DNA of 64,000 nucleotides from a virus (taxonomy: Duplodnaviria > Heunggongvirae > Uroviricota > Caudoviricetes). Positions 26,267 to 59,896 of the stretch are shown here, one piece after another. Within the stretch, counting starts at the first letter, position 1; each line of letters opens with the position of its first letter. The notes below the pieces were generated by a model. It had not been told where the DNA came from, did no database searches, and was given only the letters and a program-made list of their open reading frames with translations. The stretch lies in the IMG/VR virus record IMGVR_UViG_2740892441_000001, one strand, 5' to 3'. Position numbers and translations under genes: made by a program.

Positions 26267-26685
26267 TTACAACTTCTTAGCGCCCTTAAGTAGTGCGCTA
26301 CGTACAAATTGAGCCGCTTTTTTCAAAGTTTCTTCACTGGTTTCACAGACAACCGGATCTTTCCACTTACCTGACGCCGTGTTGAGAATGTTGATTTGGT
26401 TGCTATCCAGACAAACAGAGACGTAAAGCACCGTGCCACCAGCCAGCATCAAATGCATAGGAAACAGAGGCTTTTTACTGCCTTCACTGAACTGAGACAT
26501 GGCGATGTTAATGCTTCACCTACTTGTGCGCCAACAAGCCCTTGCGCAATTTCGAATACGGTACGAATAGCCAGACGAGCCTCTCGATCGCTCATAAGCG
26601 ACCGGGAATGTTCGTCCGCTACACGAATCAAAGCCTCTGTTGTTTTCCGATCCAGTTCATCTTCAAGTAACATTTCACTAAACAT
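26267..26685 (-). CDS. hypothetical protein, possibly one gene split by a frameshift (ORFs 26449-26685 and 26267-26500)
   Basis: Two same-strand overlapping ORFs in different frames. Confidence 0.3.
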
Positions 26686-26746
26686 TTTTTATCCTTAACC
26701 CATTTTGAGAGTTTTATTGTCGCAATGTCGAAGAGGCGAACAATTT

Positions 26747-27391
26747 CTAATGAACGGTCACTCGGCCACAGAACCGGTTTTCTATCTTTTCTACAGCGTT
26801 ATCTAGCATTCTCATCACTGATCTGGCTCTTGCTTCAACCGTGCGATATCGGTTGGAAACGACGAAGGTTTGCAGATCCCCCCTTTGCGGATGCAGGTGA
26901 ATTTTTGTCAGTTCCCCGCACATCAACGCATCAATACGAGCGACATACAGACGGTCTAATGATGCTCGTTGTGATCGCAAGTAATCTCGCTCTGAGAGAG
27001 CGACTCCCGGGCGTAAGCCAGCAATGGCGTTAAAGTTTGAAATAGCAGTTTTGTGGCAAAACTTTTCGATATCGAGGGCTAACTCAATACATCGATCTTC
27101 ATTGGTATGGCCGACCAAATCCAACGTGTAGGCCATAACATCAGCAGGTGTGCGATCGATAACAAAGCCTTCAACACCACGCGTAAGTAGCTCTATATGC
27201 TTTGCTATTTCCATTTGAATCTGAAGCCGCTCATATAGAGGCATAGACTCACCTACTCGAACACCGAGTCGGCTCATCAAACTTCCGACACCAGCATCCA
27301 CGTAAGGGATTCCGTAATGTTTGTCGATATATTTTGCCAGGGTTGTTTTCCCACTGCCCTGAGCACCAGTGATCCCAATCCGGTAATCCAT
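26747..27391 (-). CDS. P-loop kinase, putative deoxynucleoside monophosphate kinase
   Basis: N-terminal GITGAQGSGKTT Walker A; nucleotide-metabolism gene neighbourhood. Confidence 0.5.
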   Translation of the reverse strand: MDYRIGITGAQGSGKTTLAKYIDKHYGIPYVDAGVGSLMSRLGVRVGESMPLYERLQIQMEIAKHIELLTRGVEGFVIDRTPADVMAYTLDLVGHTNEDRCIELALDIEKFCHKTAISNFNAIAGLRPGVALSERDYLRSQRASLDRLYVARIDALMCGELTKIHLHPQRGDLQTFVVSNRYRTVEARARSVMRMLDNAVEKIENRFCGRVTVH

Positions 27392-27866
27392 TACGACCTT
27401 CTGTATACGATCTGCGAAAAGCCAGGCTCTTCCTCGCTGGCTCGTTGGGTATAAGCTGTTTCAACAGGCACAAAGCCTAAGTTACGCATCATGCTTGCCG
27501 GGAAGAATGCATCGGCGTTTGGTACATCAACGCCGATGTGGGAGAGCCAAATCTCTTCAACATGCGGCATGAATAGCGAGTAAATTTGTTCCCCGCCAAT
27601 CACCCACACAGGCTCTGGTAATCGCAACACATCATCCACACCAGCAGGTAGAATCCATTTGGTACAAAGCCATGAGAGCGCGTCAAAACGAGGTTATGAC
27701 GCTCTGGAAGAGGGCGTTTGAGACTTTCCATCGTTTTACGCCCCATAACGACAGTGGCGTTTTTGGTGAGTCTCTTAAATAGCTTCAGATCGGTAGAACA
27801 ACGCCAGGGGAGTTCATTCGCTATGCCGATCTCATAGTTACGGCCAACAGCAGCGATCATCTTCAT
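27391..27866 (-). CDS. frd: dihydrofolate reductase, apparent frameshift between N- and C-terminal halves
   Basis: N-half [21 protein letters not shown]...VMGRKT and C-half [10 protein letters not shown]... match DHFR in two overlapping frames. Confidence 0.6.
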
Positions 27867-28276
27867 TTGCTCACCTCATAGATGACCGGTCGATGGTGAG
27901 AGTCGGCTAAAGCGGCACGGAGTCGAGGATCGTGCACCAGCGCAGCGATAAGCAGATCGCCTTTATGCTCCGCTAATGTGCGCTTAATATGCTTCTCATA
28001 ACTGGTGCCATTCGGTACGAGATGAAGCCAGTCATAATCAACGCCAAAATCTTTCAGCCATCGTTTAGTTGGCGCTTCAAGAGTTTCAGAGCGGCTACTG
28101 ATAAGCACCACTTCAGCCCCTGAGCGAGCAAAACCACGCAACATACGGCTGGTGGGGAAAATGAGTTCATCACCGGCAATGAGCTGGCCTGCATCCGCGT
28201 CAGATACTGATTTACGATGGCTGGCATTTGCCAGCACACCTTCAATTTCGCATAAGACATACATACCTCTTGCCAT
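27863..28276 (-). CDS. hypothetical protein
   Basis: Start set at internal ATG adjacent to thyA stop. Confidence 0.4.
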
Positions 28277-28277
28277 A

Positions 28278-29381: not shown

Positions 29382-29396
29382 AAAAACCTCACAAAG

Positions 29397-29412
29397 ATAA
29401 GTAATTACTTAT
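29397..29412. promoter_or_regulatory. perfect palindrome ATAAGTAATTACTTAT (motif B) upstream of thyA RBS
   Basis: 16-bp palindrome. Confidence 0.3.
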
Positions 29413-29551
29413 TCATCGTGTGAGTTTACATTCATTGAGAGAACAAGACCAGACAGATAAAAAAATGGTGGCCATAGGCCACCAAAACGAATAGTCATTC
29501 CAGAGTTTTATTACGCATGTTAAATATACACAGATAGATAACTACCTACAA

Positions 29552-30421: not shown

Positions 30422-30498
30422 GCTAGTTTTGTTCCTTCTTAATTCTTGTGATCCATTGTGGCCCAGCGTTGCCAGGCCACATAATGCTTTGTATCGGT

Positions 30499-31641: not shown

Positions 31642-31663
31642 GTGTTTTTCCTTTTTTGATGTG

Positions 31664-31700: not shown

Positions 31701-31741
31701 TTACAAATCAAAGATAAGGTGGGGATATACCCCACCATATG

Positions 31742-34056
31742 TCAGATTTTGCAGGCTCCGTCGCACTCATCTTCTGGCTCGACGGCTACAGCTTGCGTAA
31801 GTGGATTCTGCGCTTCGTCGTCATCACGCTTTCCTGCACCATCTCTGGTGTTGTGGTAGTAAAGCGTTTTAACTCCCATCTTGTAGGCGAGAAGCAAATC
31901 TGACAGTAGCGTCATCATTGGGACTTTATCGCCTTCAAAGCGAGAAGGGTCATAGTTGGTATTGGCTGAAATAGCCTGGTCAAAGAACTTCTGGATGATC
32001 GCCACCTTTGTCAGATAGCCGCGGTTGTCCGGCATATCCCACAGGTATTCATACTGTTCCTTCAGTTTTTCAAACTCAGGCACGACCATCTTGACGATGC
32101 CGTCCTTAGAAGATTTCACTGACACCGGGCCACGAGGCGGTTCGATGCCGTTGGTGGAATTAGTGATCTGGCTGGAAGTCTCGCATGGCATTTGTGCCGT
32201 CAGTGTGGAGTTGCGAAGGCCGTATTTTGCAATACGTTCACGCAGTTCTTCCCACGGCATCTTTAACTCAAAGTTGGTTTCGCCGCTTTCGTCTAATGAA
32301 GAACGGTAATGGTCGATCGGCAACTGACCAATTGCGTATTTGGTCTGCTCAAACCAGTCACACTCACCTTTTGCTTCAGCAAGTCGGCAGCTGGCGTCAA
32401 GAAGGTAATACTGGATAGCTTCGAACGTTTCATGCACCAGTTTATTGCCAGCGGTATCAGAATAACGAACGCCATTCTTTGCCAGGTAATAAGCAAAGTT
32501 GGTTACACCAATTCCCAGGCTACGACGAGCTTTGGCAGGCACTTCGGCTGCCTCCATCGGATAGTCTTGATAATCCAGTAACGAATCCAGTGCAGCAACG
32601 GCATAGAACGCCACCTCTTTAAGAGACTCCAGTGAACGGATGGCTCCGAGGTTAAAAGCGGATAAAGTGCATAGCGCGATCTCACCGTTCGGGTCGTCGG
32701 TAAATGCCAGTGGACGGGTGGGTAGAGTGATCTCCATGCACAGGTTTGACTGGCGAACAGGTGCAAGAGCAGGAATGAAAGCGCCATGCTCGTTAATATG
32801 ATCGACGTTCGCAATATAAATTCGGCCCGTGGACGCTCGTTCCTGCATCAGAGATGAGAACAGCTCAATGGCAGGTACTGACTTCTTGCGAATTGAATCA
32901 TCGGCTTCGTATTTATGGTACAGCTTTTCAAACAGATCCTGGTCTGTGAAGAAGGCTTCGTACATATCAGGCACATCATGCGGCTGAACAGAGTGATGTT
33001 CTCGCTTCTGACGAGTCGACGGTACATTAGACGGTTACTCATGACGCCGTAATCAAGATGGCGAACGCGGTTTTCATCAATACCACGGTTATTTTTCACC
33101 ACCAGCAGACTTTCAACCTCAAGATGCCAAATCGGGTAAAACGCTGTTGCTGCGCCACCACGAACACCACCTTGCGAACAAGATTTAACAGCCGTCTGGA
33201 AATGCTTCAGGAATGGAATAACTCCGGTATGGGTGGCTTCACCATTGCGGATCTCACTGCCCAGCGCACGGATACGGCCAAAACCAATACCAATTCCAGC
33301 ACGACGTGAAACGTAGTCGATAATTGCGGCTGAAGCTGCACTAATCCCTTTCAGACTATCGCCAGACTCAATCAGCACACAACTGGAGAACTGACGGGTT
33401 GGAGTACGGACGCCGGCCATGATTGGTGTGGGCAGAGACAGCTTGAACGTACTTGTAACGTCATAGAAACCTTTGACCATCTCCATACGTGTTTTGCCCG
33501 CGCAGTCGTCTTCCCAATTCTGGAACAGACACATGCCCACCAGCATATAGATATGTTGCGGGCCTTCGTGAATCTCACCAGTAACACGGTTTTGAACGAG
33601 GTATTTGCTTTGCAACTGCACCGTAGCTGCATAGCCAAAAAGATCGTCACGTTTCGGCTTAATGTAATTGCCGAGTTCTTCGATCTCTTCAAATGAATAA
33701 TGTGTCAGCAAATCCTTGTCATAAACGCCCTTGTTAACGTTCTTGACAATGTGTTGGTAGAAGTTCGGATAGTCGTAACGACCGAAGGCATCTTTGCGGA
33801 TTTTAAAAATGTTCAGGCGGGCAGCCACCTGCGAGTAATTTGGTGCATCTGGTGAGATCAAATCAGCGGCAGATTTAACCAAAGCCTCATGCAACTGGCT
33901 GGTGGTAATCCCATCAAAAATGCTGGTCGCAGCTCCCATTGCTACAGCGGATGCGCTTACACCACGAATGCCTTCTACGCCATACATTACGACGCGGTTG
34001 TATTTTTCTTCGGATAACGGCTCTGTTTGGCCGTTACGTTTTACGATGCTTATCAT
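31742..34056 (-). CDS. nrdA: ribonucleotide reductase alpha subunit, split by a single-base frameshift near 32975-32985
   Basis: ORFs 32848-34056 and 31742-32974 both match E. coli NrdA; restoring one C after ...TLFS reconstitutes FSPHDVPDMYEAFF. Confidence 0.85.
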
Positions 34057-34699: not shown

Positions 34700-34708
34700 A
34701 TAGTCTCC

Positions 34709-35451
34709 TTACCATGTTCCCCATAGAGGGTTTTCCAATAATCTCGCCTCCAACGAATTGGCTACTATTGCCGTTTGCAACGTTGGTTGGGGATAGTTTG
34801 CAAAGTCTGAATACTCATTTTCCTGCGTGACACGTTTATCTACGGCATGTTTAACGCCACTTGCTATGAAATGACGCATGATACCCAACAGCCTCCGACT
34901 GTCTGCACTATCGTTTGCTAAAACATGAGGGAGCTGAAGTTCGATTTCTACCATTTCTCCATACTTACCAACAAACTGTAGTTTGTCCGCACTGTACTTT
35001 TTATCCCTCCTTTGGATAAGGAAACCAGTAAAAGCATCACCTGGCGATGCCAAACTATCCACCCGCTTATTGGCAAGTCGAATAAGGTTCGTGAAAGCCA
35101 TACAGTGATGCGCCCCCATTCCCCCAAAGAATCCTTCGCTATTAATGTTAAGATCTTCAGTTTCATGGGATGCAATAAACCCAGGCCCGACGTTGGGAGA
35201 TATCCCCCCTCAACAAAAGGATTAATCAGGATCGGCGCAATACATCCAGGTGGTAGTGATTTCAAACTTTGCATCAATGGTGTCTCGGATATTAGACCAA
35301 GCAACGCGGCGAATTGTACTCCGTCAATATTGTTGCTGCCCCACAGAATACGTGGAGCCGCACCATTGGAAGTATGCCCATTGATCAGTTTTATCGACTG
35401 CATCACTGCAAATACCTGCAAAAACTGCGAGCGGCTTAATTTAAACGACAT
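34709..35451 (-). CDS. hypothetical protein, apparently frameshifted (ORFs 34948-35451 and 34709-35119)
   Basis: Overlapping same-strand ORFs; C-homopolymer at about 35205. Confidence 0.3.
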
Positions 35452-37357
35452 AGCTGCGCCCCTCTTTAACTTCCAGCGTAATAGTTTCCCGGAACCATGA
35501 CTTCATCTCTTTATGGGAGATAATCAGCACAGTACCTCGCTCGCGAGCTTTGGACTCCAGAATACCCATGAGGCGTTCAAGACCGGCTGTATCGAGTGCA
35601 TCGTCAATTTCGTCGCCGATAAACAAATCGATGTTTTTACTCGCCCGGTTACTAACCAGATCCTGCAATGCCAAAGAACACGCAATGCGAACCTTCCGCT
35701 TCTCACCACCAGAGAGGGTTTGGAACGACTTACTTGAACCTTTCTTCTGCACACTAATGTTGAATTTGTCGCGATACTCACCTTTTTTAGTGACATCCAT
35801 CGTCGACCACTCAGCAGTAATGTTCCCGTCAGACAACGTATTGAGATATTCTGCTGTGCGTGTATTCAGGAAAGGCGTAACAGACGTCAAAATATGAGAA
35901 CGCACCCCGGCAGGAGAGTAGACCTGACGAGCTTTTTCCAATAGCAACGTTTGTTCCTGAATAGCCTTCAACTCATCTTTTAAGGACTTGAAGGTAGACT
36001 TACTGGATACCAGGTTATCTTCGTGTCTGGCGATAAGAGCAATAAACGGATTAATCTCTTTTGATATACGATCGACCTCAGTACGAGCACGAGTCACAAG
36101 AGACTCAATAGCAACAACCTCCTTCTCACGATGACGCAAAGATGAGAGTTGTTTCGTAAGCTCTTCAATCCGGGCAATGATAGCCGTTACATCAGGTGTC
36201 GTTTTAACAAGGGCAGACTCAATGCTTAACGCTTTCTCAAGATTCGTTTTGTGTTTAGCCATTGCCTCTGCAAGTGTCTTCGCCTGACCAATTTCCTGAC
36301 GTGCTTGTTCAATGAAATTCTCCTTCACCGTTGATAGATCTTCTTCGCAGTAGGCTTTGCCACAAGTAGGGCATGGTGATCCCACTTTAGTACCAACCTC
36401 TTCTGCTTTGGTCTTAAAATTACGCGCACGGTTCATTGCATCAGCCTGACTATTTTCTGTAGCTTTGATGCTTGCCCGAATATCAGTTATCGCACCACGA
36501 ACTTTGAGCAACTTGGCGTCATGTTCTTCTTTTGAGGCTAACTTTTTGCGCTCACTTTCGATTGCCTTCTCGGTATCACGTATCTGTTCGGGAAGAGTGC
36601 GGATCTCAAGTTCAACTTCCGTTAACTCAACTTCGGCACTGGCCAGCCCAGCCAGGGCATCGTCATAACGTTTAGAACGCTCTTGCTCCCATGATTCAGA
36701 GGAGGCTTTCGCTGACTCAATTTCTGACTGTGTTGCCTCAATGGTCGAGATTGTCGACTCCAATTTGGTTTTAACCACATCCATACGTGCGGCAGCTGCA
36801 TTAGCTCGCTCACGAGCAATAGCGTAGGCGCGTGTCAGTCTGTCAACGCCAGCGGCTTCTTCTACGATGGTTTTGAGGTTTTTGTCGGACATTCCAGGTA
36901 AATCTGGCATAGCTTCTTGGCTCGCATAGATGGAAGCCATGAAAACCTCTTTAGATGCACCAATCAGGCGTTCAACGAACTCCTGCGTCAGCGTGTCCTT
37001 GCCTTTGGTCATGTCACCGTCTTCACCGCGGACGATCAGCCGGTTCTTGAACTCTTTGTGTTTACGGTGACGAATGATCGCGTATCTCTTGCCTTCATCC
37101 TCAACAGTCACCATTACACGACAGTTTTTCTCGTAGCCTGTAGACAGCACGTCGTCACCTTTGACTCCATGCGCAGTTTCGCCATACAGACACCACATCA
37201 GGCTGTTCATCAAAGTAGATTTACCAGCGCCATTACTTGATGCGGAACTATCATCACTATTAACACCCTGAATGAGCACTAAACCACGCTGATCTAACTC
37301 GACCTCCGCGCTGGCGATAGCCATAAAATTCTCAACCTGGAGCTTTAAAAACTTCAT
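35441..37357 (-). CDS. SbcC/Rad50-like recombination nuclease ATPase subunit
   Basis: Walker A NGAGKST, long coiled coil, CPTCG zinc hook-like motif, C-terminal LSGGEKRK signature and Walker B. Confidence 0.75.
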   Translation of the reverse strand: MKFLKLQVENFMAIASAEVELDQRGLVLIQGVNSDDSSASSNGAGKSTLMNSLMWCLYGETAHGVKGDDVLSTGYEKNCRVMVTVEDEGKRYAIIRHRKHKEFKNRLIVRGEDGDMTKGKDTLTQEFVERLIGASKEVFMASIYASQEAMPDLPGMSDKNLKTIVEEAAGVDRLTRAYAIARERANAAAARMDVVKTKLESTISTIEATQSEIESAKASSESWEQERSKRYDDALAGLASAEVELTEVELEIRTLPEQIRDTEKAIESERKKLASKEEHDAKLLKVRGAITDIRASIKATENSQADAMNRARNFKTKAEEVGTKVGSPCPTCGKAYCEEDLSTVKENFIEQARQEIGQAKTLAEAMAKHKTNLEKALSIESALVKTTPDVTAIIARIEELTKQLSSLRHREKEVVAIESLVTRARTEVDRISKEINPFIALIARHEDNLVSSKSTFKSLKDELKAIQEQTLLLEKARQVYSPAGVRSHILTSVTPFLNTRTAEYLNTLSDGNITAEWSTMDVTKKGEYRDKFNISVQKKGSSKSFQTLSGGEKRKVRIACSLALQDLVSNRASKNIDLFIGDEIDDALDTAGLERLMGILESKARERGTVLIISHKEMKSWFRETITLEVKEGRSYVV

Positions 37358-39930: not shown

Positions 39931-40593
39931 TTAAACCCTGAGATTACGTTTAAAACGTCTCAGTGGCTTTTTACGCGCTGCGTTTATGCTTATGACGCCA
40001 GCTTTTGGACGTGGGTCAACAAGGTTAAGCTCTTCTTCGCTGTGGTATTCGAGGTCGAACTCACGTTTTACATGTCTGATGTAGATTGCGGTGAGCAGGC
40101 TATCTTTGGTCAGAAAGTGTCCGTAGGATTTGCGGATCACTTCTTCTACCTTCTCGATTTTCTCACCACCCATACAGAGATGATTAAACCGGCTGTGTTT
40201 CCGCAACATTTCGTCTACTGGGCCTGAGTAAACCTTGTCTACTTTCCCAAAACGGATGATTTTCCCTGTGTCTGCGGATACGAGGCAAATCAGCTTGTCT
40301 GGTGATAAACGATCTCGCCACGTCACACCTGAACGGAGTGTGTTGAAGTAGGGCGCATCCAATCCGATGATCGGTTTACGAAATGCGAGCAATGGAACGT
40401 ACCTGATACAACTATTCAAATGAAAGTTCACACCAGCCTTATCAAGTTTAATTCTGGTTTCGTAGATCGGGCACTTCGCCGCTATACCGCAGATATCACA
40501 AAGTAACTTCTGCTTATTCAGGTTGGAATTTGATTCGATAGTGTAGGAGCCGTCCTCAAGACGACGAACCCAGCGCGTGCGTTTTAGATCCAT
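39931..40593 (-). CDS. hypothetical protein with N-terminal CxxC pair
   Basis: 220 aa ORF. Confidence 0.5.
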   Translation of the reverse strand: MDLKRTRWVRRLEDGSYTIESNSNLNKQKLLCDICGIAAKCPIYETRIKLDKAGVNFHLNSCIRYVPLLAFRKPIIGLDAPYFNTLRSGVTWRDRLSPDKLICLVSADTGKIIRFGKVDKVYSGPVDEMLRKHSRFNHLCMGGEKIEKVEEVIRKSYGHFLTKDSLLTAIYIRHVKREFDLEYHSEEELNLVDPRPKAGVISINAARKKPLRRFKRNLRV

Positions 40594-43643: not shown

Positions 43644-43919
43644 TCACTCAAAAGTGCTGATGCTTAAAATACGCTCAAGATGTGCGGCATCTTCATCACT
43701 GATTTGTTGAGTCTCTTCTACGTACCAACAGTTGCCGTTATGCCAACAAACACCATCATCATCAACCATCACTGAATCAGCGTCATAACCTGTATATCCA
43801 ACGAGAATACGCTGGATCAGCGCGTCAGTTTCTTCGTCGTTAAGGCCATCGGCTTTGACCATAAAAAGCGGAAACACGTCATAGACAGTGCTGGTAACGA
43901 TTCGAACTAAAACTCTCAT
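43644..43919 (-). CDS. hypothetical protein
   Basis: 91 aa; AAGGAAAAACAC-ATG initiation region. Confidence 0.5.
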   Translation of the reverse strand: MRVLVRIVTSTVYDVFPLFMVKADGLNDEETDALIQRILVGYTGYDADSVMVDDDGVCWHNGNCWYVEETQQISDEDAAHLERILSISTFE

Positions 43920-47961: not shown

Positions 47962-48234
47962 TCAGGCTCCTTTTGTTTCGTTGATTCGTTTTAAAGCGGC
48001 GGATTCGTCGAATACAATCGCATCGTGGTTAAGGAGTCTGGATACACGAGCGAGGATTTTTACGACCTGCTCGCTGACTAATCCAAACTCGCGATCTGTC
48101 GCTTTCATTCCGGCAGCGCCTAGAATTGACGGCAGTGCGATGACAGCGTACTCACCGTGATAAAAGACAATCTCTTTTGCCAGTTGGGCAGGGGTGGTTG
48201 TAGCGCCATTAATAATCGATTTAAGCATTAGCAA
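47962..48234 (-). CDS. hypothetical protein
   Basis: 90 aa ORF. Confidence 0.45.
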   Translation of the reverse strand: MLMLKSIINGATTTPAQLAKEIVFYHGEYAVIALPSILGAAGMKATDREFGLVSEQVVKILARVSRLLNHDAIVFDESAALKRINETKGA

Positions 48235-49171
48235 TACCTTTCGAATGGAAGAACAAACACTTCAAGGTCTTCAAGGAACGAACGGAAATTCAGCTCGTAG
48301 CACAGTTGCTCGAATGCTTTCACGTCACGATTGCCTTTGATTGTTTCGATTTCGGTAGGCGGAAACTTCGTCTCAATCAGGTTCATTAGCGTGATGTTTC
48401 TCTTGAACGCTTCGAGCATTCGACAGCCTGTTTTCTCGTTGAAGGCATTCTTCGCTAGTTTGTTGAAGGCGGTCTTATGGCGTCCTTTGTCAACCACGAT
48501 TGAGCCGTCGTTGATGCCGCGTACCATCGTTGCGACACTTCCCCATTCATGCAGCAGCTCTTTCGCACCGCCAGCACCAATGCCACCAACACCGCTAATG
48601 TTGTCCGATTTATCGCCTTGTAATGCTTTTGCTTCCAAAAATGCGCGAGGAGTAGCGAATCCTGTCAGCTCCGCAAATTGCTCAAAATTAACCTGCTTGT
48701 TTTTGGCGTCTTCGCGCAGGCTTACCCAGCTTACGTTTTCGCGAACTAACTGAAGCCAGTCGCTATCGCCTGTTAACAGATAGATGTGTTCAACGGTTGG
48801 CTGCGCTGCCATGCGGGATACCAGCAGCCCGGCCAGATCATCCGCTTCTGCATCTTTTGCAATGAGTTGGGTAACTCCAAGCGCGGTCATCATTTTGAGG
48901 ATGTATGGCTTCTGGATAGCAAAGCCTTCCTTCATCTTTTTCATATCAGGATCGTCGTCGCGATTTGCTTTGTAGTCCGGGTAAAAGTCGCGACGCTTGT
49001 CACTAAATCCATCCCAAAGAATCATAGGTCGGGCATGGAGGATGGAGGCATAACGACGGACGTTCTTAACAAAGCCGAAAGCAGCCTGTACTTCCATTTC
49101 GCCGTTGTGCAATTTGTCAGATTGTTGGTGGTAATAACCCAGCTATTGCCATCTACGAAGAGATAATTCAC
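48228..49171 (-). CDS. flap endonuclease / 5-3 exonuclease, apparent frameshift near 49100
   Basis: C-terminal ORF has YKANRD, EADD, GDSD, GDKSDNISGVGGIG motifs; N-terminal LFVDGNSWV is in ORF 49022-49222 in another frame; proposed GTG start with GGAAGGAA RBS. Confidence 0.7.
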
Positions 49172-50809: not shown

Positions 50810-51017
50810 TCTAATAGGTTCCTACTTATAAAATCTGTATCAATTATATCAAACAGAGAACGGGTTTATGGCGTCATGTCAACTTTGTTCAGGGGAAGAT
50901 ATTGAGATCACCGAAGATAATTAGTTGTCTTATTTTGGTAAGCTGTGCTGACCATCTTTAGGTCACATACATGAGATGGATGGGGGTGTGGCATGAACGG
51001 ATGAAATTCAGTCGCCG

Positions 51018-51046
51018 TTGACAGATGTCAACACTGTGAATAGAAT
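51018..51046 (+). promoter_or_regulatory. sigma70-type promoter (TTGACA-17-TAGAAT) with overlapping palindrome GTTGACA-GAT-GTCAAC
   Basis: Consensus-like -35/-10 with 17-nt spacer; inverted repeat across the -35 suggests autoregulation. Confidence 0.55.
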
Positions 51047-51063
51047 ACTATTATCGGAGGCGA

Positions 51064-51288
51064 ATGAAGCAACATCCGAATAAGCATATTCAAGCAGCCA
51101 TTGACTATGCATTAAGTAAAGGCTGGATCTGGGTAGCAGCTGGTGGTGCTGCACATTGTTTTTGCAGACTGCGATGCGGTAATCCAGAAGGTGAACACAA
51201 AACTCACCAAATGAGCGTATGGTCGACTCCGGGTAATCCCGAAAACCATGCCAAACAGATCAAACGAATGGTTGATCGTTGTAAATGA
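51064..51288 (+). CDS. HicA-like toxin (tentative)
   Basis: 74 aa; KGWIWV..GGAAHCF...STPGNPENH...QIKRMV loosely follows the HicA pattern; GGAGG RBS. Confidence 0.35.
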   Translation: MKQHPNKHIQAAIDYALSKGWIWVAAGGAAHCFCRLRCGNPEGEHKTHQMSVWSTPGNPENHAKQIKRMVDRCK

Positions 51289-51348
51289 TTTCAAGGCGGC
51301 ATTAGCCGCCTTTTGCAGAAACTGTCCAACTATCTTCAAAGGAAAACT

Positions 51349-51912
51349 ATGGCGCTTTATAACTTCACTCTGACGCTCTCAGGCGTATCGTATGAGACGG
51401 AAGGACTGGAAGACGCGCTGTACCAAAACGGCTGTGACGATGCGCTAATTTGCGCATATGGAAACTCCGTCTATGTAGAATTTGACCGCGAAGCACAATC
51501 ACTTGATGCAGCTATCGCATCTGCGGTCGACAATATTGAATCAGCCGGTATCGGTGCAATTGTTGAATCCGTCGACTCGGCTCTTGTGGGCTTAAGCGAT
51601 ATCGCGGAACTGACAGACCTGTCTCGCCAGGCAGTGGCGTTGCTCAAAGACGGTAAGCGCGGAAGCGGCGACTTCCCTTGCCCTGTACAACGCATAAAAG
51701 GCCAGTCTCCTCTCTGGGATTGGGCTGATGTGGCTGAATGGCTCATGAATAACGGACGACTTAAAGAGGGCGATCAAATTGTCCAAAATGCCCGAACTTT
51801 GAGTAAATGGAATCTGGCGCTTCGAAACAGCGTCTCGAAAGATTTCAACGAAATAGAGCAAATTGCGGAGAAACTGATTAAACGCCGCAAAGATATTGCG
51901 AAATGCGCATAA
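51349..51912 (+). CDS. HicB-like antitoxin with C-terminal HTH (tentative)
   Basis: Start set at ATG after AAAGGAAAA RBS; C-terminal LSDIAELTDLSRQAVALLKDGKRG..WDWADVAEWL helix-turn-helix-like. Confidence 0.35.
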   Translation: MALYNFTLTLSGVSYETEGLEDALYQNGCDDALICAYGNSVYVEFDREAQSLDAAIASAVDNIESAGIGAIVESVDSALVGLSDIAELTDLSRQAVALLKDGKRGSGDFPCPVQRIKGQSPLWDWADVAEWLMNNGRLKEGDQIVQNARTLSKWNLALRNSVSKDFNEIEQIAEKLIKRRKDIAKCA

Positions 51913-51913
51913 T

Positions 51914-51945
51914 GATGCCCGCCAATTGGCGGGCATCTGTTCTCT
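51914..51945 (+). terminator. hairpin GATGCCCGCC-AATT-GGCGGGCATC after the two-gene cassette
   Basis: 10-bp GC-rich stem; weak T-tail. Confidence 0.4.
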
Positions 51946-52241
51946 GTAAAGGTGTCTGGCATCGTCTGGTTCGTTAACGTTTACTAAACCAATGGTGACA
52001 AAAATTAGTTATCTTTGAAAAATAAAGGTTGCATGAAAAGAAGGGGTATGCGTTAATAGCATCGTTGGTTTGCAATACAGACCTTATGTAAGCAGTTTTA
52101 GTAAAGCAGTCTCAGTTCAGTGTTATCTTCTGATTTCCCTTCTTCGTGAGTCTCCTCCTTAAGTGCCTAAGTAAGTCCCAATCTATACAGATCAAATTCT
52201 CGCCGCACTATGTGGCTCACAAAATTAAGAAGGTAATATCT

Positions 52242-52457
52242 ATGTCTAATAAAATGACTGGTTTAGTAAAATGGTTTAACTCTGATAAAGGCTTTGGCTT
52301 TATTTCTCCTGCTGATGGCAGTAAAGATGTTTTTGTACATTTTTCGGCAATTCAGAGTAATAATTTCCGCACTTTGGAAGAAGGCCAGCAGGTCGAATTC
52401 TCTATCGAGAATGGGGCTAAAGGCCCAGCAGCAGCAAATGTCGTTGCTCTAAGTTGA
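52242..52457 (+). CDS. cspA: cold-shock protein, CspA family
   Basis: [38 protein letters not shown]...[10 protein letters not shown] matches CspA-family proteins; long ORF-free leader upstream. Confidence 0.8.
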
Positions 52458-52733
52458 TTCAACGCTGATGATCCTCATTTCTACAATAACGAAGACGGTG
52501 TAAGCCTGAGTGGATAGATTTGTAGGATTGTACAAGTTGAATAAATTAGCATGGTAAGGCCATGCTAATTAAATCGACACAACGGCCAGTTTATTCCATA
52601 AAAGTGAATTGCCCATTGTGGCGAAATGCGGGGTTGCCGCATGAATAGTCAAAGGCAGAAGCTAACTGCCGGCATGGCAAAACAAAGTGCGTAAGAGGAG
52701 TGACTTCCTCAACAAGCGTCATAATTCTTTATA

Positions 52734-52757
52734 AACCCGCCAACAGGCGGGTTTTCT
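52734..52757. terminator. bidirectional terminator hairpin AACCCGCC-AACA-GGCGGGTT
   Basis: GC stem with T-run on plus strand and T-rich tail on minus strand; lies between csp and the dnaE-like stop. Confidence 0.5.
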
Positions 52758-52760
52758 TTA

Positions 52761-55700
52761 TTACTTATTTATTGTCTCCGCGATATCAGCCAGAATGGCC
52801 TCCAGTCGCTCTCCTTCTTCCGGTCGGAAGTACAGGATATTCGGGTTAAATCCGTAGAAGACGGTTGCATCAAGCTCTGGGAAGTACTCCTTACGACCAA
52901 TCAGATCTGATGGTTTACTCTTATTGTTAAATAGTGCGGTTGAACGACTACCACACGTCAAAATGTAGGTCGGACGCACCAGATTGATCTCTTCACGCAT
53001 AAAGTCGGTGAACTGGCCGATCTCGTCTTTGGTGTAGTCTTTTTCTTTGTCTTTAACCTTCTTGCAAACGCCTGTGACATAGAGATCGCCCATGCGTAAA
53101 TCTCCAGCCGTCAATAGCTTGGCCTTAAAGTCGTCGTATCCGTTCTCCATGAAGTAACCGGTTCGAGCATCATTGCCGTTCGCATTGTCCAGAATGATCA
53201 TGATTTTCGGCTTAATACCAATGCTGGGGCGGATTAGTTCATCACCTAAGCCCATTTCAGCCGCCATCCGTGTCATGAGCACGTTAATCTCAGCCGAACG
53301 TTTGGGGTTCATCTCAAACGGACGTGAGGCTTTAACTGCGTCTATGACAAGGTTTCCCATCAATTCAGCCTGGTCGCGTAGGCGCTCTGGATCAGTTGCT
53401 GGCAGACTACCTGGCTCGATGGATGCAAACGCCCCTACTTTTTGCAGCGATTCGCGCACTCGACTATTACAGGCACGTTTCTCGACAGCTTCTTCGAATT
53501 GCGCCAGTGACTCGAATTTGCCGCCAACTTTTTCTCGCGCTCTCATGATGGCTTGGCAGCCATTCTCAGAACACCCCTTCACAGCAGAGAAGGGCGCATA
53601 CAGCACCTGGCTGCCATCTTCAAGCGTGCGGATCTCGATTCGGTTAGATGACACGTTAACGTCTGGTGGCAATACGCGAATACCATAGGTCAGCGCATCT
53701 TTAACCAGCCCCTGGTGTTTATCTTCGCCAAGAATAGTGAGAGCAGCAGCGAAAAACTCTGCGGGATAATGAGTTTTCAACCACATAGATTGATAACTGA
53801 TTAAGGAGTAGGCAACAGAGTGTGATTTATTGAACTGGTAGGCACCATTTTTTTCGAATGCGGTCCAGATCTCCTTCGCTTTCATCTCTGATAGCCCTGG
53901 ATGTGACGCTGTAACGCGTACTGCGTTTATAGGTAGTTTTGCGCCGTGCTCAAGTGCCTCTTCGACAGTTTTCAGAGTTCCGTCTTCGCATTTAAAATGT
54001 TCCGCACGGTGAATGCGCTGTGTAGTGCCATCTTCCAGCTCAACGTCTATCCAGCCAGCTTGAGCCTGAACGATGAACTTCTCGCCCATGCTCTTCATTT
54101 TTTCCATGTTCTTCTTACCGATTGCGGAACGCACACCGTCAGCTTCAGCCATTGTGAAGCCGGCAAGCAATCGAGTCGCGTTCATCGTCTGTTCCTGATA
54201 GAGAATCACGCCATTTGTTTCCGCGGTAAGTTCATCAAGAACGGGGTGTAATGATTCCGGCGTCATAAAGCCTTTGGCGACAGAAACATAGTCGTCCAAC
54301 ATGCCGGATTGGATCGGGCCAGGTCGGAAGAGTGCGGTCGTGGCGACAACGGTTTTAAAGCTCATTGGCTCAATGCCACCGCCTAGATCTTTAAGCAGCT
54401 TGCGCATGGGGCCGGACTCCAGCTGGAATACGCCCTGTGTATACCCTGCAGCAAAACCATCCAGCACCTTGCGATCTTCAAGAGAAATGGCATCAAGATT
54501 GATATCTTCACCTGTGTTCTCTTTTATGTAGCGTTTTGCACTATCGAGCAAATCGAGAGTTGCCAGGCCAAGCACGTCCAGCTTAATTAGGCCCATAGCC
54601 TCGCAGTAACGCTTGTCAAATGCGATACAACGCGCGTCACCACGGCGCTCAACCGGTGTACGTTCTGTCAGAGGAACACCTGCTACAATCATCCCTGCCG
54701 CATGTCTACCAAAGCCACGCATAAGGCTTTGTAACTTGCAGGCTGCATTGAATGCATCAGGATATTTTGTTGCGTATTTGTCGAGACTTGCCAGTTGTTC
54801 GCGCAGCTCTTCCAATGGAAGGCTATCATCCTCGACGTTCTTCAGTTCTTTTGATACCGCCATATCTGCGGACTCCACACCATAAATACGAGCGGTGTCA
54901 CGTAGTGCAGAGCTGCGCCCAGGTAGGTGAAGTTCGGAATGCCTGCAACGTAATCTTCGCCGTAGCGTTCATTCAGATACTCGATCACCTCATGGCGACG
55001 TGCCTGGCTGAAGTCCAAGTCCGCATCCGGCAAGTCGAGACGCTCAGGGTTGATGAAACGCTCAAACAGAAGACCGTGACGGATTGGGTCGACGTTGGTT
55101 ATGCCTATGCACCACGCCACCAGAGAACCGGCAGAGGAACCACGACCAGGCCCGACAGGAATGCCAGTTTCACGGCTGTGATTCATCAGATCGCGTACCA
55201 TCAGGAAGTAACCACAAAATCCCAGGCGAGTCAGCGTGTTCATTTCGTACTTTAGCCGCTCAACATAAACCCTGTTCTCAGAAGCAGGTGGTGTGTATCC
55301 AAACTCTTTTGTGGTAAGACGTTTACGCAGCCCTGCAACAGCCAGTTTCATCAGCGTTGCAGGTTCGTCGTCTGCCATCTTGGGCAGTGCTGGTGGCAAT
55401 TCATGCCAGCGCCATGTGCAGGCATCGATAATGGAGTCCTGCGTTGTTGAGGCCATTGCAGCTGTTACCGGCACATCCATGCGAACGGAGAAGGCTTTAA
55501 GCGCCTCAAGGAGATGGCGACGACCATTGATGGCGTTATCTCGCTGGTGGGGGATACGCAGACGATGCGGCTGGTCGATTTTTATGTTGTTCGTAACCAT
55601 GTGCGCAATGTCTTTAATGTCTGCATCGTCGATCGATTCGTAATAAGCGGGATAGAACGCTACTGGCTCTATTTTCAGTGCGCTGGCTACTTTCATCGCT

Positions 55701-56278
55701 CGGACGTTAATCTGGTCGTAGAATGGGGTAGGGTGCGGATAAACCACGCTATAGAAGTTGTCTTTCCCGCCCGCTGTAATCAGTGAGCTTATGATTTTTG
55801 CAAAATCGTTGCGTTGGAACACGCTACCGATGTCGGAAGTGAGCAGGATGATGTTGCCTTTGGCATATGTAGAAACCAACTGTTCGAGCGAGAGACGCGG
55901 TACAAAGTAGAACTGTTCTCGTGTGTTGGCCACCGTCATTAGTTCGCAGATGTCGCGATATCCTTGCTCATTTTTAATTAGAGCGGTAAACGAGTAGTTA
56001 CGTCCCCGCTCTAATGATTCCATACATCTCATAGATTCTTTAGCAAGTTTAGCCCGGTGCTCGTATGTGGGATCATCAACGATATTTAGTTTCACACCAC
56101 AAATAACCGCCATGTCGTCACCAGCGGCACGTTGTAGTGGAATAACACTCGCAATATTCATGCTATCTGCTGAAATTACAGCGGTGTAGCCAGCTTCTCT
56201 GGCAATCTTCACCGCGTTTTCTGCTTTTAGAGCCGACTCCCCAAGTGAGAAGTCAGTTCGAACCATCAGTGCTTTCAT
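52761..56278 (-). CDS. dnaE: DNA polymerase III alpha-like (DnaE-type) polymerase, apparent frameshift near 54842-54878
   Basis: N-terminal ORF has PHP domain and GIPVGPGRGSSAGSLVAW..DPIRHGLLFERFINPER; C-terminal ORF has GLIKLDVLGLATL, GVFQLESGPM, FNKSHSVAYSLISYQSMWLKTHYPAEF. Confidence 0.8.
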
Positions 56279-56457
56279 GTGTTTTTACCTTTATGGTTTT
56301 TTTGATTTTGTCATTGGGGAAGCTACGAACTTCCCATACATCGAAATCGCAACTTCTTTTGCTGATTGGTGACAATCGGGCTTGTCTGGACATACCAGAC
56401 AAGCCTTACCAGTTTCAGAAGCAGCGATAAGAGAGCCGAAACATCCTTTACGCACGA

Positions 56458-57693
56458 TCAACCAAATATTTTTTGAACAACTTCACGAGCCGCTTGTGCA
56501 GAAGCTGAAGGGAGTTTGTTAATGAAAGAACGCTCAATACCTGTCACAAAGTCGCCTCGCATCATTCCAATCTTGGCCGACAACAAAAGTTCACGAGGGC
56601 CAATTGGCTGACTGATAAGGTGTTCTTCGTATCCATCGCGAACGATACCGGCAAACTTAACCATCTTTTCTGCGTATTCATCCACGATACCGGCATTTAT
56701 CAACATGTTGATCTCTGCCTCTTTGCTCATGTATTTCACATTCGAAACGATGCCAAAACGCGAAAAGTTCGCGGCGTTCTGGATGTTTGTACCCTGGTAC
56801 AAGCCGGTTTCATCACCAGATCCGTTCGTGTTGCCAGTGCCAATGAAAGCAAACCGTTCATGCGGAGTAATGCGACGCCATTCTGGAGTCGCCTCTTTGA
56901 TGACTAACGCTTCACCTTCCAGCACTGGCTGATACACGCCAAGAATTTGTGGAAACGCAAAGTCATATTCATCCGCGAGGTAAACCCAGCCATGCTTCAT
57001 TGCGAGCGCAAGCAAGCCAGGCTCGAAATACGTAGAGCCATCACGCGCCAGAATTTGTCCCGTAACATGTGCCTCTTCCATTGATGCTGTATGTTGGGCA
57101 CGGATCAACGGACGATTGAGCAAAGCACATAGCTGTGTAGGCAATGACGATTTGCCTGTTCCTGCATGACCCCACAAATAGCCTGGTATGCCAAGTTCAA
57201 GCATCATGAAAATGTCTTTGATCAGTTCGAAGTCGCCATATACGTATCCCTTCTTCACTTCTGGAACGAACTCTGGAAACGGCGTATTGACGTTGACGCT
57301 AACCATGAGCGGCGTCCCACGTTTTGTTCCGAGTTCTTTCACCGTTACGTTTAGCAGTTCGTGAGCTGCGACCAGATCTGTCTTGTACTCAACTGTGCCT
57401 GTGTAGCCTGGGCTACTGGTCACGCCAGATGATTTGGCCATTTCGCTTTTTTGCTCGGCACGTTTAGCTTGAATTGCATCAAGTGCCTTTTTCGATAGCG
57501 TTGGCTCATCTGGAAACTGTGTTGTGTACATTTTCAGTACGGTGTCAGGATCGGCATCTTTTACTGACTCAGGAATGCCCTCGCAATTACCATTGGCTAC
57601 ATGGGACTTAAAATAGTGAAATGATTTTCCGCACCACTTGCAAACAAGGTAATCAGAAGGATTTTTTTCATTTTGCAGTGCAGTAGTAGTCAT
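56458..57693 (-). CDS. CobS/MoxR-like AAA+ ATPase
   Basis: Walker A GHAGTGKS and AAA+ core; paired with the vWA protein. Confidence 0.65.
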   Translation of the reverse strand: MTTTALQNEKNPSDYLVCKWCGKSFHYFKSHVANGNCEGIPESVKDADPDTVLKMYTTQFPDEPTLSKKALDAIQAKRAEQKSEMAKSSGVTSSPGYTGTVEYKTDLVAAHELLNVTVKELGTKRGTPLMVSVNVNTPFPEFVPEVKKGYVYGDFELIKDIFMMLELGIPGYLWGHAGTGKSSLPTQLCALLNRPLIRAQHTASMEEAHVTGQILARDGSTYFEPGLLALAMKHGWVYLADEYDFAFPQILGVYQPVLEGEALVIKEATPEWRRITPHERFAFIGTGNTNGSGDETGLYQGTNIQNAANFSRFGIVSNVKYMSKEAEINMLINAGIVDEYAEKMVKFAGIVRDGYEEHLISQPIGPRELLLSAKIGMMRGDFVTGIERSFINKLPSASAQAAREVVQKIFG

Positions 57694-57755
57694 GCGTTTT
57701 TCCTTTGTTTTCTAATGAGCGTTCAACTTCTTATATAAATATATCATTATCTATC

Positions 57756-57771
57756 GTAAGTGGTTACTTAT
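57756..57771. promoter_or_regulatory. palindrome GTAAGT-GGTT-ACTTAT (motif B)
   Basis: Inverted repeat upstream of the cobS-like gene. Confidence 0.3.
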
Positions 57772-57788
57772 CGTTAAGGCTGTTTTGT

Positions 57789-59896
57789 TCACTTTAAAAT
57801 GATACGAGATAGTTCAGTAACTACAGATGAACCAAGACTATCAACGCTCGTTACCAGGGCATGATTTGAGTAAAATCTCTCCGGTGCGTCAGTCATGATG
57901 CCAATTGCCATCAAATCAATGTCAGTCTGCGTTTCAATTTGCTTCGCAACCGAACGCAAATGAGCGTCAAAACCTCTCCCAACAGCCCACGGCTCGCCAT
58001 CACTCAGAACAAGCATGATCTTCCTGTCCTCCATGCGACCGGAAAATAACGATGCAAGACTGGCTATGCTTTCACCATCCACGTTATTAAGAAGTGGGAA
58101 TGTGTAGCCTACGCACCCCATACGTGAGCGAACTTCGCGAGAATTTACCTTTTCATTCCAATTTTTGATGATAGGTAGCATTAAAGATTCAAAGCGAGAG
58201 AACTCATACTTGACAGCCTTAAGTTCTCCTGCCGCCATATGACTACCAAATGTAGTGAAGCCGGTGATAATGTTGGGAACATTTATTCGATCAAGGGCAT
58301 CGGCGATGGTATATGCACTTGCAAGAGCTAGTTTTATCGTTTCGCCACTCATTGAACCTGATAAATCAATCACTTGCTGAACACAGGCGTTAACGGCTTT
58401 AGATTCTTCTTTTTTACGAAACACGCGATCATCATTCATTGCTAATCTGTAGATACTAGAGCCATGAATGCGCCCCCGACGCTGGCCCGGTATAAACTGA
58501 ACTCTGTTTCTGCTTGCTATTGCACGTTCCAGGTCTTTTGCTAGCGTCGACGAAACACCTGACGAAAGATGCTTTTCAATATATTTGTCGAAGAGCTGGT
58601 TGCCTTCAGGAACGATGCGATAGCGGCTGATTGGATATCCTCCCAAATCAATATCGGAGAATGTTTTAATAAGCCGTTTGATATGGCTTCTGCCTGATCA
58701 ATCGAGCCGATGAAGTCGTATGAGCGATTGTATGGCCTGTATTCGCTTTTCGAGCTTTCTGTTAACTCGCTTTTAATCGTTTCGGATAGAGCATCTTCTG
58801 TCATGCCTCCGACTTCATCTTCTATGCTATCCAGCTCCTCTAAAGCCTCTTCCAGACTCATTTTTGACGGAGTTGGGATATCTGAAGAGCCGTCTTCTGT
58901 CGTTTTTCTTTTTTCGTGGTCAGCGGTTAATGATTCTGACGCCGCGTTATCAGAAGCATCAGAATCTGATACCTCTTTATCATTTTCTGTATCATCGAAT
59001 ATTGTTTCTGATGATTCAGAATTATCTGAATCATCACTGTTGTTATTATCATGTTTGTGCTTACTATGTGATTCTGATTTGATAGATTTGTGATTATCTA
59101 ACGATGAAGGTGTCTCATGATCTTCGTTGTCTTCATTGTTTTCTCCAGAGGCATCCGTCTGGTCAGCGTCAGAAGGATCGGAAGTTTTTCCCGGAGCTGA
59201 CTCCTTACCTTTGCTTTCACTTTCAGTGTCTTTGAGGATCTTAGCTATGGTCGCAGCCACCTTTACACAATCCTCGGTGCAAGACATGTTACGCACGGCC
59301 ACATCGATACCATATTCTTTTAATAATGAAATTGGTTTCTCAATGACAGGCCAGTATTCATCCATGAAATCTACGAACGGTGCTTGGCCATCCCAGGCTC
59401 TTACAACCGGACAGAGAAAGAAGTTTAGAAAAAGCGCGCGCTGATCTTTGCCACAATAAGCAATAGCCTCTGAAGCCTTTGGTTTAAAGACTTTTTCGAT
59501 TATAAGGCGCTGAGTTGCCATCAGATTACGTCTTGTTCCGTTAAAGACCTGACCCATTTTTCGCTCGATGAACACGTCTTCTAAGGCATTCCATAGCGAC
59601 CAGGAAGGAACGCGTCCTTTTTCTCTCATTTTGTTGGACACACGAATATCGGTAAACAAAATGTGAGCAACCTCATGATCGAGAAATCCGCGCACAGCAT
59701 TCATCAATGCCGGTGTTGCGTTATCCGGGATTGATGGGATGTTTACGAGAATTGGCTCTCCATCATCGTTATAGCGTACATAAGCGTCGTCCCCTCGTTC
59801 TGCAACAGGGATGTTTTTACCTGAAAGGAGAGCGACTACTCGTTTTACACTGTCACGGAAGTCCTGAACCTCTTTGATGGAACGTTTTTTAGACAT
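57789..59896 (-). CDS. CobT-like von Willebrand factor A protein with acidic Ser/Asp-rich linker, apparent frameshift near 58541-58646
   Basis: C-terminal ORF has MIDAS motif DLSGSM; N-terminal ORF carries an acidic low-complexity linker; the two overlap in different frames. Confidence 0.55.

Follow-up and report, generated by a model that had tools for sequence, protein, structure and literature searches.

Why does a viral genome show so many of its conserved genes as pairs of overlapping open reading frames (ORFs), each pair needing only one base to become a single gene? The window, i.e. the whole 64,000-nucleotide stretch of DNA analysed here (IMG/VR record IMGVR_UViG_2740892441_000001), is 100% identical to contig JUDX01000018.1 of assembly GCA_001630835.1. 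It shares 98-99% nucleotide identity with many E. coli plasmids of the SSU5/pHCM2/pLF82 group and with phage Cyrano, and 79% with Salmonella phage SSU5; an identity of >98% to pLF82 is given in the paper describing the source isolate (PMC5517970). The gene order repA, nrdAB, thyA, frd, sbcCD, recA, dnaE, cobT is common to the window and to SSU5/pHCM2/pLF82-like phage-plasmids. This combination of high identity and synteny, repA and the DNA-metabolism module included, identifies the replicon as an SSU5/pLF82-like phage-plasmid carried by Escherichia isolate RCE03 (E. coli). Its repA gene (41337-42392) is intact.

A preliminary description of the sequence listed eight genes split into two overlapping same-strand ORFs and proposed homopolymer sequencing error as the cause. 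Seven of them, all inside the flagged span (26267-59896), are indeed pairs of overlapping minus-strand ORFs produced by one missing base. Two events had been overlooked, namely a frameshift at 39965, which makes an eighth broken gene, and an intergenic deletion at 56323. The affected features are the following.

26267-26685, minus strand: 420-bp hypothetical gene; 1-nt deletion at 26513 (GG in relatives, G in the window; coding AGCC to AGC)
27391-27866, minus strand: dihydrofolate reductase gene frd; 1-nt deletion at 27647-27648 (GGG to GG)
31742-34056, minus strand: nrdA, class Ia ribonucleotide reductase alpha subunit; deletion at 32982-32983 (GGG to GG; coding CAGCCCGC to CAGCCGC)
34709-35451, minus strand: 744-bp hypothetical gene; 1-nt deletion at 35195-35198 (GGGAAG or GGGGAG in relatives, GGGAG in the window)
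39931-40593, minus strand: 645-bp hypothetical gene; 1-nt deletion at 39965-39966 (GGG to GG)
48228-49171, minus strand: 5'-3' exonuclease / flap endonuclease gene; 1-nt deletion at 49142 (GG to G; coding AGCCTGG to AGCTGG)
52761-56278, minus strand: dnaE-like gene, DNA polymerase III alpha subunit; 1-nt deletion at 54912 (GG to G)
56323, no strand assigned: intergenic 1-nt deletion (CC to C), in an AGCC context on the plus strand, 45 nt upstream of the dnaE start
57789-59896, minus strand: CobT-like (cobaltochelatase CobT-related) gene; 1-nt deletion at 58685-58686 (GGG to GG)

The remaining locus of the original list, 18407-19305, does not show this pattern and consists of two adjacent complete genes.

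18407-19021, minus strand: complete gene, 204 aa, annotated in relatives as a 615-bp coding sequence (CDS)
19024-19305, minus strand: complete gene, 93 aa, annotated in relatives as a 282-bp CDS

The two are unrelated: the 204-aa product matches PHROG 425 over its full length (3-224 of 224), and the 93-aa product does so for a different family, PHROG 557 (1-92 of 100). The window has no indel here against any relative, and the junction between the genes reads GATAATTATG; their apparent overlap arose because the mechanical ORF list used an upstream TTG. An additional candidate frameshift, at 5385, is uninterpretable, as the region 5100-5900 is unannotated and its ORF breaks differ in every relative.

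Orthologue comparison and single-base correction, both put forward in the preliminary description as checks, give concordant results. For the seven split genes starting at 26267, 27391, 31742, 34709, 48228, 52761 and 57789, annotated relatives carry one intact CDS of 420, 477, 2316, 744, 945, 3519 and 2109 bp, respectively. Adding one G on the plus strand at each site rebuilds every orthologue-length ORF, with 140, 161, 772, 264, 334, 1174 and 712 codons in the same gene order. The earlier observation that one extra C restores the nrdA frame is correct on the coding strand, where the repair yields the 772-codon ORF. The frd orthologue is named DfrA51 in RefSeq. The deletion at 39965 alters the last ~10 codons, such that the product measures 220 aa in the window and 214 aa in relatives.

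The deletion alleles are absent from all of the 6-38 relatives available per site, except for nrdA in one IMG/VR contig. At 26513, the extra G is found in 12/12 relatives spanning the site; the frd site (27647) is intact in 16/16 relatives, the nrdA site (32982) in 27/28 loci and the 39965 site in 6/6 relatives. One more base is present at 35195-35198 in 21/21 relatives (A in 18, G in 3), which leaves this deletion ambiguous between the G-run and AA. The exonuclease site (49142) is intact in 35/35 loci and 31/31 IMG/VR contigs, the dnaE site (54912) in 33/33 loci and 20/20 contigs, and the cobT-like site (58685) in 38/38 loci and 35/35 contigs, and the extra C at 56323 occurs in 35/35 loci. 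When viral contigs were searched for the 39965 site, no match was obtained, probably owing to SNPs in the flanks. Wider searches returned the exact dnaE deletion allele in none of the GTDB genome contigs, the exact cobT allele in none of the JGI metagenome contigs, and the nrdA deletion in 0/172 PLSDB plasmids and 0/200 complete E. coli genomes. In a search of about 15 billion proteins, four of the truncated products turned up solely in a second assembly of this isolate, the Logan assembly of SRR1596056. Another 478-aa DnaE fragment (P0017) does not represent the same allele; the -1 deletion behind it is a different one, located 8 nt away in a Logan contig that is unrelated and of low quality.

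Two overlapping same-strand ORFs that jointly encode a full protein have the superficial anatomy of a recoding site, and programmed recoding (ribosomal frameshifting or transcriptional slippage) or homopolymer phase variation could in principle produce such an arrangement. Phase-variable tracts are long homopolymers or simple repeats, typically of 7 or more units. The runs affected here comprise 2-4 bases, invariant across 6-38 relatives, and are reduced to 1-3 bases in the window, far shorter than tracts at which slippage or phase variation can occur. Orthologues in hundreds of relatives are single uninterrupted ORFs, so there is no conserved shift site, and the conserved two-frame architecture of a programmed frameshift does not occur in the relatives examined. 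Eight unrelated genes would moreover need independent recoding in a single isolate. This mechanism is so improbable that it can be discounted.

Nine indels are private to the window and all are 1-nt deletions; there are no private insertions. Their density is 0.23 per kb (9 in about 38.6 kb), whereas related loci totalling 1.24 Mb have 0.041 per kb. All nine lie in runs of 2-4 bases, as measured in relatives, and eight are unambiguously in C/G runs. An AGCC(C) context surrounds 7/8 of the unambiguous deletions, against a background of 11.9% (p = 2.4e-6), and 9/11 when events restricted to the second assembly are counted as well (p = 2e-7). The motif lies on the minus strand in 6/7 AGCC-type events, a mild strand bias (p = 0.04). 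None of the A/T runs of at least 6 bases (n=36, within 22.8-64 kb) is affected. The earlier statement that the shifts sit at short homopolymers stands in so far as runs are hit; these runs have only 2-4 bases, and the errors follow context rather than run length. Mismatch-repair-deficient slippage was rejected, as long A/T and C runs are unaffected, and Dcm or Dam methylation motifs as an error context fit only one site (49142, CCTGG). Eight of the nine private deletions fall in coding sequence, near the coding density, and the intergenic deletion at 56323 belongs to the same context class as the coding ones, which indicates that the events neither avoid nor prefer coding sequence. Their concentration between 26 and 60 kb departs only mildly from random, no coding frameshift being detected in the first 26 kb (post-hoc p about 0.01-0.03). 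Natural indels that vary among relatives, in contrast, lie between genes, come in multiples of 3 or are compensated. The intergenic differences at 22238, 22383 and 23074 are natural polymorphisms common to several relatives and not private errors.

Genuine pseudogenisation would mean that lytic and replication-module functions were lost by real frameshifts, the element persisting as a plasmid by virtue of repA and partition. With repA intact, plasmid maintenance would not require nrdA, dnaE, cobT and the like. The argument, made in the preliminary description, that too many core functions are broken for a viable replicon is weak for precisely this reason. NCBI gene calls on the deposited contig leave out cobT and dnaE, as would be expected of pseudogenes, and rnhA is annotated as frameshifted in the relative pAMPD01, so this phage-plasmid family does contain frameshifts, whether real or apparent. 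However, decaying genes should display a mixed mutation spectrum and relaxed selection, whereas only -1 deletions, only short C/G runs and a single sequence context are seen here. Neither nonsense mutations nor insertions, IS elements or larger deletions are present in the split genes. Outside one recombinant tract, the 45 private substitutions (roughly 23 synonymous, 18 nonsynonymous and 4 intergenic) show purifying selection and include no nonsense change. No disabling allele is shared with close relatives, the one exception being a single contig with the nrdA deletion.

The provenance of the sequence bears directly on this choice. JUDX00000000 represents isolate RCE03; its reads came from an Ion Torrent PGM with a 318 chip and the 200-bp kit, and MIRA 4 was the assembler (PMC5517970). 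Correction was reference-guided only (HomoHomo), and the RCE03 authors caution that artificial frameshifts remain, this step having cut them only about 2.5-fold (PMC5517970). The window is thus the product of a flow platform without orthogonal polishing, and the Ion Torrent PGM is documented as a source of exactly such artefacts (PMC5517970, and the account of high-frequency indels in PMC3623719).

The Logan assembly of SRR1596056, made independently from one run of the isolate, can be compared with the window, part of the deposited meta-assembly, over about 37 kb, in which there are 0 substitutions and 7 one-base indel differences. Two of the window deletions are intact in the Logan assembly (at 26513-26514 and 39967). 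Conversely, five indels occur in Logan only: 26883 (C6 to C5), 35966 (AGCC to AGC), 43847 (GGCC to GGC), 57453 (T6 to T7) and 63889 (AGGCT to AGCT). At all five sites the window matches every relative, and three genes are broken in Logan only, encoding an AAA_28 ATPase (26883), an sbcC-like protein (35966) and an AAA_5 ATPase (57453). Base calls thus differ from one assembly of RCE03 to the other, and only by single-base indels, with no accompanying substitutions; this instability, like the C/G-deletion bias of the window-private indels in short homopolymers, is expected of Ion Torrent PGM artefacts. Disabling alleles of true pseudogenes should be reproducible and common to clonal relatives, and two of these alleles are not reproduced.

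The remaining 7/9 deletions are common to both assemblies, among them those at the frd (27647) and nrdA (32982) sites and in the exonuclease gene, at which Logan contig L128 is identical, deletion included. This sharing could be taken as support for pseudogenisation. Because both assemblies derive from Ion Torrent reads of RCE03, their agreement at these deletions proves neither error nor reality; given the same chemistry in both, we infer that the seven common deletions are also errors. The case for artefact rests on the mutation spectrum and on the disagreement between assemblies, not on viability, and pseudogenisation appears very unlikely. Homopolymer sequencing error, proposed earlier from the sequence, is now documented by the PGM/MIRA 4 provenance and by the indel-only disagreement of the two assemblies.

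The nrdA deletion requires separate consideration. An identical deletion, CAGCCCGC to CAGCCGC, occurs in an unrelated IMG/VR contig, L030 (UViG_2617271087_000005, from IMG genome 2617271087), on a different SNP haplotype. With 99.0% identity to the window (76 mismatches), L030 was rejected as its source; shared descent of the deletion was also rejected, since the SNP haplotypes around it diverge within 140-190 nt on either side. In other respects L030 is clean; over about 30 kb it is nearly identical to plasmid pTIC (MF554642.1), the nrdA deletion being its only coding indel. The truncated NrdA of L030 is absent from the protein collection. L030 was also considered as a further assembly from the RCE03 Ion Torrent project; its near identity is to pTIC instead.

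These observations raise the possibility of a mixed case, in which the nrdA frameshift is a real, independently recurrent inactivation of a plasmid-borne ribonucleotide reductase (RNR) and the other deletions are artefacts. If true, recurrent nrdA loss would hint at selection against phage RNR expression during plasmid carriage. However, the deletion is found in 0/372 finished plasmids or genomes, a CCC run is an implausible slippage hotspot, and the site has the same AGCCC context as the other artefacts. Flow sequencing is known for site-specific high-frequency indels, as described in PMC3623719, and IMG genome 2617271087 may also have been flow-sequenced. The mixed case is thus unlikely.

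The split genes are very probably residual Ion Torrent PGM base-calling under-calls, the so-called high-frequency indels, carried over into the consensus as deposited. This analysis established the origin of the sequence and its platform, the spectrum of the indels, the privacy of the alleles to this isolate and the disagreement of two assemblies. In the proposed sequence of events, the signal of a short C/G run would at times be read one base short on the flow-based platform. At certain contexts, mainly AGCC(C), or (G)GGCT on the other strand, most reads would carry the deletion, and MIRA 4 would then place the shortened run into the consensus. Reference-guided correction with HomoHomo would clear only part of these errors, and a deletion surviving within a gene would shift the frame and leave two overlapping ORFs.

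The finding is accordingly an ordinary one: the genes are really broken in the deposited sequence, but almost certainly through sequencing errors. Its value is in quality control and implies no new biology. Eight genes of JUDX01000018.1 (GCA_001630835.1) are falsely broken, and assemblies built from Ion Torrent data alone would mislead analyses of gene content, pseudogenes or "defective phage-plasmids". Their truncated proteins also enter large protein databases as singletons. The strong AGCC(C) context could serve to flag or correct such errors.

Relative to SSU5/pHCM2/pLF82-like phage-plasmids, the window differs notably only by the artefactual frameshifts and ordinary mosaic variation. A true division of dnaE does exist among relatives: L109, L116 and L118 likewise carry the gene as two ORFs (787 aa and 389 aa), but their halves are separated by a 244-aa HNH homing endonuclease gene, whereas the window has a private 1-nt deletion instead. 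The split in these relatives is a real mobile-element insertion, seen in several independent assemblies.

Frameshifts in draft genomes from 454 and other flow chemistries similarly split conserved genes into two overlapping ORFs that are mended by one base. Errors of the 454 platform become more frequent as runs lengthen, with insertions and deletions about equally common. The events in the window, by contrast, occur in short runs and all nine are deletions.

The closest likeness is to the PGM high-frequency indels described by Bragg et al. 2013 (PMC3623719), with which the window events share their single-base size, the dominance of C/G deletions, the 2-3-base runs and a dependence on context rather than length. 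In that study, high-frequency indels arise at a rate of about one per kb of reference, mostly as A/T insertions or C/G deletions; the strand-asymmetric ones are mainly C/G deletions, 82% of them in homopolymers of 2-3 bases (PMC3623719). The window shows the residue left after consensus building and reference-guided correction, about 0.23 per kb. The AGCC(C) context is evident in the window, and a description of such a context does not appear in the parts of PMC3623719 consulted. As described there, PGM high-frequency indels are not fully reproducible between runs, and the window and the Logan assembly likewise disagree at 7 sites.

By sequence, the window is a phage-plasmid of the SSU5/pHCM2/pLF82-like type from Escherichia, with 98-99% nucleotide identity to many E. 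coli plasmids and phage Cyrano and 79% to Salmonella phage SSU5; the collections of phages, plasmids and complete E. coli genomes contain no identical record. Its gene order is common to three annotated plasmids, ESBL242 (L001, NZ_KP792123), pE16EC0562-7 (L002, CP088541) and pAMPD01 (L003, NZ_CP058309). Missing bases were located by BLAST alignment to these plasmids, and about 100 related loci were compiled for allele comparison at the deletion sites. All seven genes reported as split at 26-60 kb in the preliminary description are single intact CDSs in the three plasmids, and each lacks one base in the window. That list overlooked two further deletions, one coding (39965) and one intergenic (56323).

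Single-base deletions in the window, with the intact allele among related loci and the repaired reading frame
26513: hypothetical gene, 420 bp in relatives; intact in 12/12 loci; repaired to 140 codons
27647: DHFR, 27391-27866 (-), 477 bp in relatives; intact in 16/16; 161 codons
32982: nrdA, 2316 bp in relatives; intact in 27/28; 772 codons
35195: hypothetical gene, 744 bp in relatives; intact in 21/21; 264 codons
39965: hypothetical gene, 645 bp, near the 3′ end; intact in 6/6; 224 codons
49142: 5′-3′ exonuclease, 945 bp in relatives; intact in 35/35; 334 codons
54912: dnaE, 52761-56278, 3519 bp in relatives; intact in 33/33; 1174 codons
56323: intergenic, 45 nt upstream of dnaE; intact in 35/35
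58685: CobT-related gene, 2109 bp in relatives; intact in 38/38; 712 codons

Addition of one base at each of the eight coding sites regains full, uninterrupted ORFs that agree with the orthologues. The region 18407-19305, previously described as an eighth split gene, shows no indel relative to its relatives; two adjacent genes are annotated there, and their products match two different PHROG families, each at full length. Indels at 22238, 22383 and 23074 were rejected as errors, being intergenic natural polymorphisms common to several relatives. RefSeq gives the pAMPD01 orthologue of this DHFR the name “trimethoprim-resistant dihydrofolate reductase DfrA51”, so that a core phage nucleotide-metabolism gene is now catalogued as a resistance determinant.

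All nine private events are single-base losses, with no private insertion relative to the ~100 related loci. As had been proposed, the shifts lie at short homopolymers: at least eight of the nine fall in C/G runs that are 2-4 bases long in relatives, while the ninth (35195-35198) can be read as GGGG to GGG or as AA to A. Read on the strand that carries the C run, seven of the eight unambiguous deletions occur in an AG|CC or AG|CCC context, which is found in 11.9% of the region's C/G runs of length 2-3 (binomial p = 2.4e-6). The sites at which true replication slippage concentrates are unaffected across the stretch analysed (22.8-64 kb): the 36 A/T runs of at least six bases, and likewise the longest C/G runs. 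The deletions are coding in 8/9 cases, approximately the coding density, whereas natural indels among relatives are intergenic, multiples of three, or locally compensated. Private 1-nt indels reach 0.23 per kb in the window versus 0.041 per kb in related loci (1.24 Mb). In the first 26 kb the comparison revealed no frameshift. Errors in 1-16 kb may have escaped detection because the relatives covering it are few and more divergent. This 26-kb gap and a mild strand bias of the deletions are weakly non-random (p ~0.01-0.04, post hoc).

Within the window's minus-strand 5100-5900 region, unannotated overlapping ORFs (5240-5593 and 5505-5861) show breaks and indels that differ in each of three relatives. 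This may be a naturally decaying gene; with so few relatives, it is not attributed to sequencing error. A 10-bp deletion at 20884 (AGCTATGAAA), relative to three of four relatives, lies inside a small hypothetical gene of 198 bp. The event differs from the Ion Torrent error type and may be natural variation.

The window's provenance was traced through the integrase. Carrying two private amino-acid changes, it matches exactly the Logan assembly of run SRR1596056 and contig JUDX01000018.1 (108,886 nt) of GCA_001630835.1, which is 100% identical to the window at 50840-64000. JUDX00000000, called “RCE03”, is a meta-assembly that combines three colonies from one patient with Crohn's disease; sequencing was by Ion Torrent PGM (318 chip, 200-bp kit v2), with MIRA 4.0 as the assembler. 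The RCE03 plasmid shows >98% identity to pLF82, from E. coli LF82 (Rakitina et al., BMC Genomics 2017, PMC5517970). When looked up by exact match, the truncated fragments of NrdA, DnaE, CobT and the exonuclease all pointed to Logan assemblies of this single run, SRR1596056. Three Logan contigs overlap the window by ~37 kb with no substitutions, and therefore derive from the same isolate; they differ from the window at seven single-base indels. At 26514 and 39967, Logan carries the intact allele, as do all relatives. Its own indels lie at 26883 (C6 to C5), 35966 (AGCC to AGC), 43847 (GGCC to GGC), 57453 (T6 to T7) and 63889 (AGGCT to AGCT), where the window agrees with every relative. Three of them break genes intact in the window (AAA_28 ATPase, sbcC-like gene, AAA_5 ATPase); those at 43847 and 63889 produce no visible split of a called gene in the gene tables examined. 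With Logan-only events included, 9/11 short-run C/G deletions share the AG|CC(C) context (p = 2e-7). The decisive evidence is thus that two consensuses from one isolate's reads differ at nothing but one-base indels, alike in kind and context.

Genuine pseudogenisation of the phage-plasmid genes would be compatible with viability: with an intact repA, the element could be maintained as a plasmid, which weakens the earlier argument that so many disrupted core functions are implausible in a viable replicon. The spectrum, one-sided and context-specific, nonetheless contradicts pseudogenisation, as do the alleles private to the window and the discord between assemblies of the same isolate. Moreover, no other disabling change is present. 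The 45 private substitutions outside a 290-bp recombinant tract (~23 synonymous, 18 nonsynonymous, 4 intergenic) include no nonsense change, hence ordinary purifying selection and no further sign of decay in the lineage. The tract itself (36950-37240, within the sbcC-like AAA ATPase at 35441-37357, minus strand) bears 43 substitutions absent from 17-21 relatives, 35 synonymous and 8 nonsynonymous, and resembles an import by recombination from an unsampled lineage. The defining tests of programmed recoding and of phase variation turn out negative: each orthologue is a single ORF, and the runs, invariant among relatives, are too short.

In wider collections, a 70-nt query around the nrdA site hit 172 PLSDB plasmids and 200 complete E. 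coli genomes, every one with the extra base, and IMG/VR, scanned with patterns accepting either allele, returned only the intact form at the exonuclease (31/31), dnaE (20/20) and cobT (35/35) sites. The exact dnaE deletion allele was not found in the GTDB genome set, nor the cobT one in the JGI metagenome set. Among ~15 billion proteins, the four truncated proteins occur in only one contig apiece. Another Logan contig (L129, SRR18254048_7307) has a different -1 deletion (CTGGGCG to CTGGCG) at the equivalent of ~54920, 8 nt away from the dnaE site of the window, giving a DnaE fragment of the same 478 aa; such truncated singletons therefore recur in unpolished assemblies. The nrdA deletion itself recurs in an unrelated IMG/VR contig, UViG_2617271087_000005 (L030; its position 3553 corresponds to 32982), on a different local SNP haplotype; it is absent from the 372 finished plasmids and genomes. 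Over ~30 kb, L030 and plasmid pTIC (MF554642.1) are nearly identical, with this deletion as the sole coding indel. Either a site-specific flow-chemistry error recurred in a second draft, or the nrdA mutation is real and recurrent; the latter is quite improbable.

An intein with a LAGLIDADG homing endonuclease lies within the window's RecA gene (45620-47959, minus strand; 779 aa), and identical proteins carry Pfam Intein_splicing, LAGLIDADG_3 and RecA_N. Within this plasmid family the intein is polymorphic, as sister plasmids L109, L111 and L112 encode RecA without it (342 or 357 aa). In L109, L116 and L118, independent relatives, dnaE (52761-56278 in the window) consists of two ORFs (787 aa and 389 aa) separated by the gene for a 244-aa HNH endonuclease. 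That is a genuine mobile-element interruption, whereas the split of dnaE in the window is very probably an artefact.

The split genes are very probably a sequencing artefact and biologically nothing new, and the original observation was largely correct. Spectrum, private alleles and disagreement between assemblies support its sequencing-error interpretation; very probably, the cause is residual Ion Torrent under-calls, which would have been left over and fixed in the consensus to split the genes. Bragg et al. 2013 (PMC3623719) describe “high frequency indel” errors of the PGM, with roughly one per kb of reference; a second run often fails to reproduce them, and most commonly they are A/T insertions or C/G deletions. 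Among strand-asymmetric indels, C and G deletions dominate, 82% of them in homopolymers of two or three bases. The indels of the window and of Logan match this spectrum, including Logan's single T insertion.
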